Source: Phycisphaerales bacterium (GTDB lineage: Bacteria; Planctomycetota; Phycisphaerae; Phycisphaerales; UBA1924). From it: DNA of 64,000 bases. The position numbers were made by a program, and so were the translations under genes. The notes under the pieces are model-generated. The model saw only the letters and a list, made by a program, of their open reading frames with translations, was not told the DNA's origin and did not search any database. Below, piece after piece: positions 35,384 to 37,395 of this stretch; the stretch's first letter is position 1; each line of letters opens with the position of its first letter. The DNA is taken from assembly GCA_052168215.1 (NCBI GenBank), contig JBQLZJ010000009.1, forward strand, positions 16,049 to 80,048, given 5' to 3'.

Positions 35384-37216
35384 ATGAACATCCGCAACTT
35401 TTCCATCATCGCCCACATCGACCACGGCAAGAGCACCCTCGCCGATCGGCTGCTGCAGGCCACCAAGGCCGTTTCCGATCGCGAGGCCAAGGCCCAGCTC
35501 CTCGACTCGATGGACCTCGAACGCGAACGCGGCATCACCATCAAGGCCTCCGCCGTCACCGTCACCCACCAGCACACCTTCCCGGACGGCCGAACCGAGC
35601 CCTTCATGCTCAACTTCATCGACACGCCCGGGCATGTCGACTTCGGCTACGAGGTCAGCCGGGCCCTGAAGGCCTGTGAGGGGGCGTTGCTCGTCGTCGA
35701 CGCGGCCCAGGGCGTCGAGGCCCAGACCGTCGTCAACGCCTATCTCGCCGTCGAGCAGGACCTGGAGATCATCCCCGTCCTCAACAAGATCGATCTGCCG
35801 GGTGCCCGGCCCGACGAGATCGCGATGGAAGTCGAGCAGGTCCTGGGCTTTGCCGCCGAGGACTGCATCCCGGTCTCCGCCAAGACGGGCCAGGGCATCC
35901 CCGAGCTGCTCGCCGCGATCTGCGACCGCTTCCCGGGCCCCCGTGCCCCGCAGACCACGAAGACCCGCGCCCTGATCTTCGACGCGGTCTACGACGATTA
36001 CCGCGGCGTGATCGTCTACTGCCGCGTGTTCGACGGCACGCTCAAGGTCGGCGACAAGATCCGCATGATGGGCCTCGGCCGCACCTTCTCCGTCACCGAA
36101 CTCGGCAAGTACACGCCGAAGCCCGTGAAGGTCAAATCCGTCTCCGCCGGCGAGACCTGCTACCTCGTCGCCGCGATCAAGACCCTCGGCGATGTCCGGG
36201 TCGGCGACACCATCACCATCGAGCACGACCCGGCCGAGACCGCCCTCACCGGCTACGAACCGCCACGCCAGATGGTCTTCTGCGACTTCTACCCCGCCAC
36301 CAACAGCGAGAAGAAGGGCAACGACTTCGAGGCTCTCCGCGAGGCCATGGAGAAGCTCAGCCTCAACGACGCCAGCTTCACCTTCCAGACCGTCCACTCC
36401 GAGGCGCTCGGGTTCGGCTACCGCTGCGGCTTCCTGGGTCTGCTCCACATGGACATCATCCAGGAACGCCTCGAACGCGAGGGCGATGTCGAGATCGTCC
36501 AGACCGCGCCCACCGTCTCCTACAAGGTCGAGATCCGCGGCAAAGAGGGCCAGACCGAGGAGATCGAGGTCCACAACCCGGCCGACCTGCCCGACATGGC
36601 CGTGGTCACCCAGATCAAGGAACCCATCGCCCGCGTCGAGGTCATGGTCCCCAAGACCTATGTCGGCGATGTCATGAAGCTCGCCATGGACCGGCGGGGC
36701 ATCTTCAAGAACCAGATGTTCGTCAGCGATGTCCGCGAGATGCTCACCTTCGAGATCCCCCTCGCCGAGCTGATTTACGACTTCTACGACAAGCTCAAGG
36801 GCATGACCGCCGGCTACGGCACCATGGATTACGAGATCGTCGATTACCGGGCCGACCGGCTCGCCAAGGTCGATGTGCTCATCAACGGCGACCCGGTCGA
36901 GGCGCTCAGCGTCATCGTGCACAAGGACCGCGCCGAGCAGCGAGGCCGATCGCTCCTCGTCCGCCTCAAGAAGCAGATCCCACGCCACAACTTCGAGATC
37001 CCCCTCCAGTGCGCCATCGGCGGCAAGATCATCGCCCGCGAGACCATCAAGGGCTTCCGCAAGAATGTCACCGCCAAGTGCTACGGCGGCGATGTCACCC
37101 GCAAGCGCAAGCTGCTCGAGAAGCAGAAGAAGGGCAAGGAGCGGATGAAGGCCATCGGCTCCGTCACGATCCCGCAAGAAGCCTTCATGGCGGTGCTGGA
37201 GCAGGGGGAGGAGTGA
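35384..37216 (+). CDS. lepA: Translation elongation factor 4 (LepA)
   Basis: ATG at codon 92 of the track ORF gives MNIRNFSIIAHIDHGKSTLADRLLQ (G1). Also FIDTPGHVDF, LNKIDLP, and a conserved C-terminus ...KCYGGDVTRKRKLLEKQKKGKERMK. Confidence 0.95.
   Translation: MNIRNFSIIAHIDHGKSTLADRLLQATKAVSDREAKAQLLDSMDLERERGITIKASAVTVTHQHTFPDGRTEPFMLNFIDTPGHVDFGYEVSRALKACEGALLVVDAAQGVEAQTVVNAYLAVEQDLEIIPVLNKIDLPGARPDEIAMEVEQVLGFAAEDCIPVSAKTGQGIPELLAAICDRFPGPRAPQTTKTRALIFDAVYDDYRGVIVYCRVFDGTLKVGDKIRMMGLGRTFSVTELGKYTPKPVKVKSVSAGETCYLVAAIKTLGDVRVGDTITIEHDPAETALTGYEPPRQMVFCDFYPATNSEKKGNDFEALREAMEKLSLNDASFTFQTVHSEALGFGYRCGFLGLLHMDIIQERLEREGDVEIVQTAPTVSYKVEIRGKEGQTEEIEVHNPADLPDMAVVTQIKEPIARVEVMVPKTYVGDVMKLAMDRRGIFKNQMFVSDVREMLTFEIPLAELIYDFYDKLKGMTAGYGTMDYEIVDYRADRLAKVDVLINGDPVEALSVIVHKDRAEQRGRSLLVRLKKQIPRHNFEIPLQCAIGGKIIARETIKGFRKNVTAKCYGGDVTRKRKLLEKQKKGKERMKAIGSVTIPQEAFMAVLEQGEE
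37172..37214 (+). repeat. Direct repeat copy 1: the authentic 3' end of lepA (codons PQEAFMAVLEQGEE, followed by TGA) including a GGAGG SD-like box
   Basis: ccgcaagaagccttcatggcggtgctggagcagggggaggagt aligns with 37353-37395 at a fixed offset of 181 nt, with 37/43 identical by my hand alignment. Confidence 0.8.
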
Positions 37217-37347
37217 TGACTCAGGCGGAAACTAACTCGCAGAGTGGCCAGACGCAGCAATCCGACGACAAGTGGGATCCCAAGGCGATCGAGGCTGCGC
37301 TGCGCAAGGCCGCACAGGCGGCGGCTCGGCGCAAGGCTGCTGGGTGA
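37216..37347 (+). CDS. Possible 43-codon ORF between the two lepA-end repeats (MTQAETNSQSGQTQQSDDKWDPKAIEAALRKAAQAAARRKAAG)
   Basis: The ATG overlaps the lepA TGA (gagTGATGact) and GGAGG lies 4 nt upstream. Composition is Q/S/T/K-rich, unlike neighbouring genes. No family recognised. Confidence 0.3.
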   Translation: MTQAETNSQSGQTQQSDDKWDPKAIEAALRKAAQAAARRKAAG

Positions 37348-37352
37348 CACTC

Positions 37353-37395
37353 CTGCAGAAAGCCTTCATGGCGGTACCGGAGCAGGGGAAGGAGT
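37353..37395 (+). repeat. Direct repeat copy 2: degenerate copy of the lepA 3' end (reads LQKAFMAVPEQGKE, followed by TAG) supplying AAGGAG (37389-37394) 7 nt upstream of the GTG of the next gene
   Basis: ctgcagaaagccttcatggcggtaccggagcaggggaaggagt. See copy 1. Confidence 0.8.

Follow-up and report, generated by a model that had tools for sequence, protein, structure and literature searches.

Gain of genes directly behind a conserved gene, without a recombinase, is a recurrent kind of event that has already been described. Insertion with long target duplication is known from restriction-modification gene units (Nobusato et al. 2000, Gene 259:99; Furuta, Abe and Kobayashi 2010, PMC2853133), and a homology-facilitated model has been proposed for the type VI secretion system (T6SS) effector-immunity arrays of V. 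cholerae and for rhs displacement (Kirchberger et al. 2017, PMC5361080). Here we describe a locus with likenesses to both, in a 64,000-nucleotide stretch of DNA from a Phycisphaerales bacterium (GenBank assembly GCA_052168215.1, contig JBQLZJ010000009.1, positions 16,049 to 80,048 of the forward strand). We call this whole stretch the window and number positions from its first letter. In it the 3' end of lepA, the gene for elongation factor 4, is present a second time a short way downstream, and this second tail is a genuine scar of small toxin-type cassettes that recombined in behind lepA. With the restriction-modification units the locus shares a short insert, the lack of a mobility gene, target-derived repeats of variable length above 30 bp that are often the 3' end of a neighbouring gene, and addiction-type cargo, but here the cargo is a toxin-antitoxin-like pair or another small cassette and the host is an uncultured planctomycete. 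With the 3'-end displacement arrays it shares a conserved upstream anchor behind which modules are added, old 3' pieces and orphan protective genes that are pushed downstream, the lack of an integrase, and the stacking of successive events (one relative, G428, has three tails). The anchor here is however a housekeeping gene unrelated to its cargo, where the arrays have the constant part of a polymorphic toxin; what is displaced is a gene tail without function, and the orphan gene that was kept lies between the copies. Integrase islands at the 3' ends of tRNA and housekeeping genes, and integrase-less cis-mobilizable elements (CIMEs), also bracket foreign DNA with a duplicated gene end while the gene stays intact; unlike them, the lepA locus has no integrase, no fixed core, a variable repeat length and single-gene cargo. 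What is new here is the family-wide survey of lepA in Phycisphaerales, the recognition of a 43-codon open reading frame (ORF) as an orphan partner gene, and a codon-position test of paired gene tails.

The lepA gene (35384-37216, plus strand; 610 codons from MNIRNFSIIAHIDHGKST in the ORF list) is the conserved homology anchor of the locus, and its product is 93% identical to records from Planctomycetota and Phycisphaerales metagenome-assembled genomes. A repeat search of the window finds direct repeats at 37158-37214 and 37339-37395 that are 57 nt long, identical at 46 of 57 positions (81%) and spaced by 181 nt. The first-pass annotation, made from the letters of the window, had aligned the last codons of lepA by hand with a second copy at this offset. 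Its 37 identities in 43 bases between 37172-37214 and 37353-37395 are confirmed by direct reading, the repeat proves wider than it had supposed, and the duplication stands clear of chance: the last 90 nt of lepA, aligned locally to the 2.5 kb downstream, score 60, whereas 1000 dinucleotide shuffles gave a mean of 20.1, a standard deviation of 2.5 and a maximum of 34. The left repeat is the functional lepA tail (37158-37216 with its stop, plus strand), encoding PQEAFMAVLEQGEE and then TGA at 37214-37216. The right repeat (37339-37397, plus strand), which encodes LQKAFMAVPEQGKE and then its own stop, TAG, at 37395-37397, is an orphaned and decaying lepA tail with homologues in the same place in two congeners, G003 and G006. 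Because the right copy differs from the left by 4 synonymous and 6 non-synonymous codon changes, it is no longer coding. The exact 16-mer AAGCCTTCATGGCGGT occurs twice in the window (0.01 occurrences expected), and the search for further copies that the annotation had proposed found it in the 2.38-Mb assembly only at the lepA locus. Its statement that the sequence in between is not duplicated also stands: the interval 37217-37338, considered as decayed lepA, was rejected as such, since its score of 19 against lepA is that of the shuffles (mean 18.4). The repeats, which are target-derived and longer than 30 bp, thus enclose an insert of 124 nt with no mobility gene. As the annotation had also seen, the right copy supplies the next gene with a Shine-Dalgarno box, AAGGAG at 37390-37395, inside the repeat and 6 nt before the GTG at 37402. 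Neither a promoter or terminator nor an RNA family (Rfam) match was found in 36800-38700, the folds of the two tail copies are not unusual (z -0.69 and +0.56) and show no att/attC-like structure, and a search past the HEPN-like, SnoaL and methyltransferase genes found no third lepA tail in the window. The window belongs to contig 9 of a metagenome bin of 2.38 Mb with 79% completeness. The layout with a second tail is conserved in three independently assembled congeners, and similar cases lie on megabase-scale contigs.

Two relatives of the same genus preserve a fuller version of what the repeats enclose. In both G003 and G006, lepA is followed by a kinase gene, a small ORF and a second lepA tail that lies some 715 nt beyond the first, with a bracketed insert of about 0.66 kb. 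The kinase gene starts a few bases past the lepA stop; in G003 its product has 193 residues and belongs to the Zeta_toxin family (PF06414, E 3.8e-10), and in G006 it was recognised by alignment to G003. The small ORF begins inside the 3' end of the kinase gene and terminates in ...AIEAALRKAAEAAARRKAAG, with its stop at the left edge of the tail copy. The guess that the window carries a decayed element was therefore right, as these genomes hold some 0.7 kb between the copies, including the kinase gene that is missing in the window. What the window retains is the 43-codon ORF (37216-37347, plus strand), whose ATG at 37216 overlaps the lepA stop (TGATGA) behind a GGGGGAGGAG run. It is homologous to the small ORFs of G003 (43 residues) and G006 (39 residues), which there lie directly after or overlapping the kinase gene; the window protein reads MTQAETNSQSGQ...KAIEAALRKAAQAAARRKAAG and its G003 counterpart MTPSNSKPSSGS...AAIEAALRKAAEAAARRKAAG. 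Over the last 21 codons, each of the three pairs shows 6-8 synonymous and 2 non-synonymous changed codons in the frame of the ORF, while the other two frames show 0-2 synonymous and 8-10 non-synonymous ones. By this synonymous excess in its own frame the ORF is a protein-coding gene under purifying selection, real, conserved and previously unannotated.

The kinase and its small downstream gene form a two-gene unit across the order and many phyla, often with a 4-base overlap, and the partner proteins share a motif, AM-RAARRA, frequently followed by W-R/K-D-G-K-I-V. Against a profile of 19 partners the 43-residue window protein reaches an hhalign probability of 74% (E 2.7e-5), aligned over the motif helix. 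The partner has no match in Pfam, NCBIfam or PADLOC. Since neither the window nor its assembly, 79% complete, contains a kinase of the PF06414-like family, the window gene is an orphan small partner of a zeta-toxin-like kinase cassette and a candidate antitoxin. A second partner-only remnant lies between two lepA tails in G507, where the repeats are 150 nt long and 95% identical. The cassette of the relatives resembles the epsilon/zeta and PezAT type II systems (PF06414) in having a kinase of about 190-200 residues with a P-loop, paired with a small overlapping gene. It differs from them in the small partner, which sits on the downstream instead of the upstream side and belongs to none of the described antitoxin families by these matches, and in that the kinase has been lost altogether in the window. 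A decayed remnant of the cassette was also seen in a different genus (G020:C5:41523-41702), where a zeta kinase fragment (residues 5-64, 73% identical to G003) directly follows lepA.

Second lepA tails are not confined to this genus. A degenerate lepA-tail pattern was scanned in 301 genomes of the family and found the tail in 270, of which 11 have two or three well-kept lepA tails on the same strand; the reversed pattern, used as a control, gave 0. Since the pattern misses decayed copies such as that of the window, 11 is a lower bound. In an independent set, a second tail lay within 3 kb at 7 of 76 Phycisphaerales lepA loci. The repeats vary in length from one case to another (about 50, 57, 78, 81, 101, 109, 113, 127, 135, 145, 150 and 270 nt), and their right edge lies mostly at the stop codon, where homology between genomes ends. 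The cargo between the tails varies as well. It is a kinase with its partner in G295, G273, G398 and G428, a PIN-like gene with a small ORF in G513 and G070, and elsewhere a DUF2283-containing pair or an unknown ORF of 122 residues. In G124 it is a 2.6-kb segment with nucleotidyltransferase/HEPN (MNT/HEPN) and HicB-like genes, in G140 a PEP-CTERM protein gene on the opposite strand, and in G477 almost nothing (49 nt). A link of tail duplication to the zeta cassette alone was accordingly rejected, as PIN-like, DUF2283, MNT/HEPN, SnoaL and PEP-CTERM cargo occurs too. No recombinase-like gene was seen in the bracketed segments inspected in 15 relatives, and a literature search for lepA as an integration site returned nothing relevant. 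The stretch behind lepA is thus a hotspot of gene gain in an uncultured planctomycete order.

The differences between paired tails bear on where the second copy came from. If the copies were identical at birth, the functional one then changing at synonymous sites only and the orphan at all positions, we estimate that about 27/27/46% of the differences would fall on codon positions 1/2/3. Across 16 comparisons of paired lepA tails from 15 genomes, the differences were instead distributed 34/28/112, with 95 synonymous against 46 non-synonymous changed codons (p = 6e-6 against the free-decay model). These counts are anchored on the stop codons; the pairs of G523 and OZ245827.1 dropped out of them, and two rows of 9 nt are noise. 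At one locus (L190, G477:C15:5200-8200, minus strand; oriented positions 1158-1302 and 1352-1496), two 144-nt tails lie 49 nt apart and are 78% identical, yet differ by 26 synonymous codons and only 1 non-synonymous codon; the arrangement resembles two different lepA alleles joined with no cargo between them. Further pairs give synonymous to non-synonymous ratios of 14:2, 14:4 and 10:4. Because the differences are mostly synonymous, the paired copies would come largely from two functional lepA alleles, and the simplest reading is that most paired tails are two alleles that each evolved as a working gene in a different genome. The synonymous excess between copies thereby offers a simple sequence test that bears on the origin of recombinase-free insertions with long repeats.

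We therefore consider it likely that the second tail in the window derives from an earlier lepA allele, whose 3' end was orphaned when a small cassette of a zeta-toxin-like kinase gene and its partner entered directly behind lepA. The most likely mechanism, judged from the sequences compared here, would run as follows. Incoming DNA from a related bacterium would pair with the recipient through the highly conserved lepA, and an illegitimate joint would attach its non-homologous far end some 57 nt ahead of the recipient's lepA stop. The product would be a complete lepA and its cargo in front of the last 57 nt of the recipient's lepA and its old downstream gene. Such homology-facilitated illegitimate recombination, which is reportedly due to de Vries and Wackernagel in 2002 and Prudhomme et al. 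in 2002, would need no recombinase encoded by the element; C-terminal displacement in rhs is likewise said to have been reported by Jackson in 2009. An illegitimate joint inside the recipient's lepA tail would account for the variable left edge of the repeats, their right edge at the stop codon, the diversity of the cargo and the lack of a recombinase. In the window genome the kinase gene would later have been deleted, leaving the partner gene, started by the ATG that overlaps the lepA stop, and then the old tail. The main reason for the survival of this tail may be that the HEPN-like gene behind it uses the tail's end as its ribosome-binding site. The reduction of the copy in G398 to its last 18 nt, still in place before the next gene, suggests that selection acts on the Shine-Dalgarno end. 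As neither a terminator nor a promoter is predicted in between, lepA, the partner gene and the HEPN-like gene probably share one transcript.

Several points weigh against this origin. We found no clean empty site and identified no donor; in genus g103, a search for an empty site by way of the gene behind the orphan tail turned up only further occupied sites, the sole orthologous locus, in G398, being occupied too; its matches were dominated by a sequence of about 40 nt with 20-30 copies per genome. The illegitimate joint is too diverged for microhomology to be read from it. In G000, G003 and G006 the orphan tail begins at the same left edge but is followed by different genes, so later exchanges must be assumed. 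All of the genomes are metagenome bins. GC-biased mutation at GC-rich third positions could somewhat inflate the third-position excess, and the window's own pair, at 4:6, is too decayed to show an allelic origin, so that for the window the mechanism is argued from its relatives.

A first alternative is a true insertion with long target duplication, in which a dedicated mechanism as yet unknown, such as widely staggered breaks provoked by toxin-type cargo, would copy 50-270 nt of the target, the two tails being identical at the start. The phenomenon has been described for restriction-modification units (PMC2853133), some of our pairs are 94-98% identical, and zeta/partner cassettes are flanked by repeats of a neighbouring gene at 12 of 102 loci (2 of 161 controls). 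Nearly pure synonymous divergence in the divergent pairs (26:1, 14:2, 14:4 and 10:4) is however hard to reconcile with one copy having been non-coding since the duplication; by the codon-position test, what would be duplicates of one target in the restriction-modification case appear here to be largely two alleles. Nor is the duplication tied to one type of cargo, and the cargo encodes no nuclease or transposase, so we regard this explanation as unlikely. Another possibility is that the tail copy is a functional module, kept or spread as a portable region for translation initiation or coupling. Beyond the AAGGAG box that the copy places 6 nt ahead of GTG 37402, G295 and G273 have a next gene that starts 2-4 nt past the stop of the copy, and the predictions put neither a promoter nor a terminator between lepA and the cassette. 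In G398 the copy is reduced to its last 18 nt (CTGGATACGGGGGAGTGA), right before the next gene. Such a role would account for the retention of the tail but not for its origin, and the copy is present all the same in G006, whose next gene runs on the opposite strand, and in G003, whose next gene starts 34 nt further on; the upstream 40 nt of the copy would have no such role. As an account of the second tail we find it distinctly improbable.

The first-pass annotation had suggested site-specific integration, reading the two tails as the attL and attR of a decayed element that targeted the 3' end of lepA, which would need an integrase acting in trans. Elements of this kind usually leave a duplicated 3' gene end as their footprint, three tyrosine-recombinase genes lie on other contigs of the genome, and G000, G003 and G006 have one left edge in common, that of genus g103 differing only slightly. 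The annotation had noted that no integrase is present, and indeed the window's contig has no match to the tyrosine recombinase profile PF00589 (the three matches are on contigs C1, C2 and C8; serine recombinases were not profile-searched). Repeat lengths of 50-270 nt from one event to another do not fit the fixed boundaries of an att core, though, the cargo is unrelated and often a single gene, no recombinase was seen in the bracketed segments inspected, there is no hairpin or att-like structure, and the paired copies carry mainly synonymous differences of an allelic kind. We consider this reading very unlikely. Its broader half, a recombination scar at a site of cassette exchange, survives; the attL/attR footprint does not. 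The annotation had also asked whether relatives carry different cargo at this site, and the comparison of congeners shows that they do. An integron cassette was rejected as well, on the fold z-scores of the two copies (-0.69 and +0.56), the lack of an integrase on the contig and the presence of cassettes in both orientations.

The same cassette is also found at other genes. At kinase-family loci, significant direct repeats stand on both sides in 12 of 102 cases, compared with 2 of 161 shifted control positions. The repeats are groEL 3' ends in three planctomycete genomes (84-97 nt), the 3' ends of an RNase Y-type gene (rny, 63 nt) and of a class Ic aminoacyl-tRNA synthetase gene (glnS, 258 nt), while an S9 peptidase gene contributes a further 3' end and hsdR a 5' end. 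The duplicated glnS, groEL and rny ends at zeta cassettes are biased in the same way as the lepA tails, with differences that fall 32/26/82 on codon positions 1/2/3. At the planctomycete groEL loci L063, L068 and L099, the partner ORF runs in frame into the duplicated groEL tail and ends ...TDAVITEIKDKKKPAGGGMDDMDVDY, the GroEL C-terminus. We tentatively speculate that toxin and defence cassettes placed right after the stops of conserved genes such as lepA, groEL, glnS and rny could hitch-hike on their anchor, gaining both expression by translational coupling and a homology arm into distant relatives, and could so spread between diverged species without a recombinase. Reported long target duplications might then be the hetero-allelic tails of donor and recipient, and orphan partners might be retained antidotes. 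If an allelic origin should prove general, it would supply a mechanism for a phenomenon first described in restriction-modification genes and would account for the clustering of toxin-antitoxin and defence cassettes where the most conserved genes end.

Within the genus, the space behind lepA differs from genome to genome. Seven congeners match the window at 88-92% DNA identity as far as the final base of lepA, beyond which the match is lost, so that a conserved anchor adjoins a non-homologous variable segment. Similarity resumes at the minus-strand gene at 39511-40173, or in some congeners at the start of the SnoaL-like gene, at about 38085-38185. The gene at 39511-40173, of 220 codons, is conserved at 77-80% identity in six of the seven congeners (G002-G007; the contig of G001 ends before this position) and forms the right border of the slot. 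Because each congener carries a different gene in between, we regard the space downstream of lepA as a hypervariable cassette slot; five congeners have a single lepA tail, each followed by a different cassette. In G002 the slot holds a HARE-HTH protein gene, in G004 a gene for a weakly SIR2-like protein with an ATG that overlaps the lepA stop, in G005 DUF1828, and in G007 a gene for a PD-(D/E)xK/NucC-like DUF6602 protein. The genes between lepA and the right border are mostly low in GC, and cassettes lie in both orientations.

In the window itself, the first gene after the orphan tail (37402-38064, plus strand; GTG start, 220 codons, low GC of 51-57%) is HEPN-superfamily-like (DUF4145/MtlR, with an RNRVAH motif). 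Its product scores 20.7 bits against Pfam DUF4145 and 19.7 bits against MtlR, both under threshold, and 23.8 bits against NCBIfam MltR; PADLOC gave no hit for it, and a 32%-identical homologue lies directly behind lepA in G001. The SnoaL-like gene (38117-38533, plus strand; Pfam SnoaL 1.1e-13) is itself a mobile cassette of the slot, with homologues between two lepA tails in G523 and OZ245827.1. Remnants of the SnoaL start (window 38085-38185) are left as fragments of 38-104 nt in G001, G004 and G007. The methyltransferase gene (38680-39495, plus strand), also a variable part of the slot, is common only to the window and G005.

Some further observations concern individual relatives. At L196 (G428:C129:1-4600, minus strand), lepA is followed by a zeta kinase and its partner, a second tail, about 550 nt, a third tail and then a protein like that of the SIR2 cassette in G004; tails 1 and 2 of this genome share 40 nt past the stop, including a hairpin. 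At L192 (G044:C1:615000-618000), tail motifs lie at positions 1387 and 1492, the second well preserved and 105 nt after the first. Tail motifs were also seen at or near contig ends, on two contigs per bin, in G481 (C53:9-37 and C177:19-47) and in G465 (C203 and C334), which suggests that tail duplications break short-read assemblies and are hence under-counted. Lastly, the gene behind the orphan tail at L072:653-1167 (G295) contains, at about 402-444 of the query, a sequence of about 40 nt of which genomes in genus g103 have 20-30 copies each, 95-100% identical; it may be a conserved coding motif for an N-terminal signal or prepilin-type sequence in a large paralogous family.

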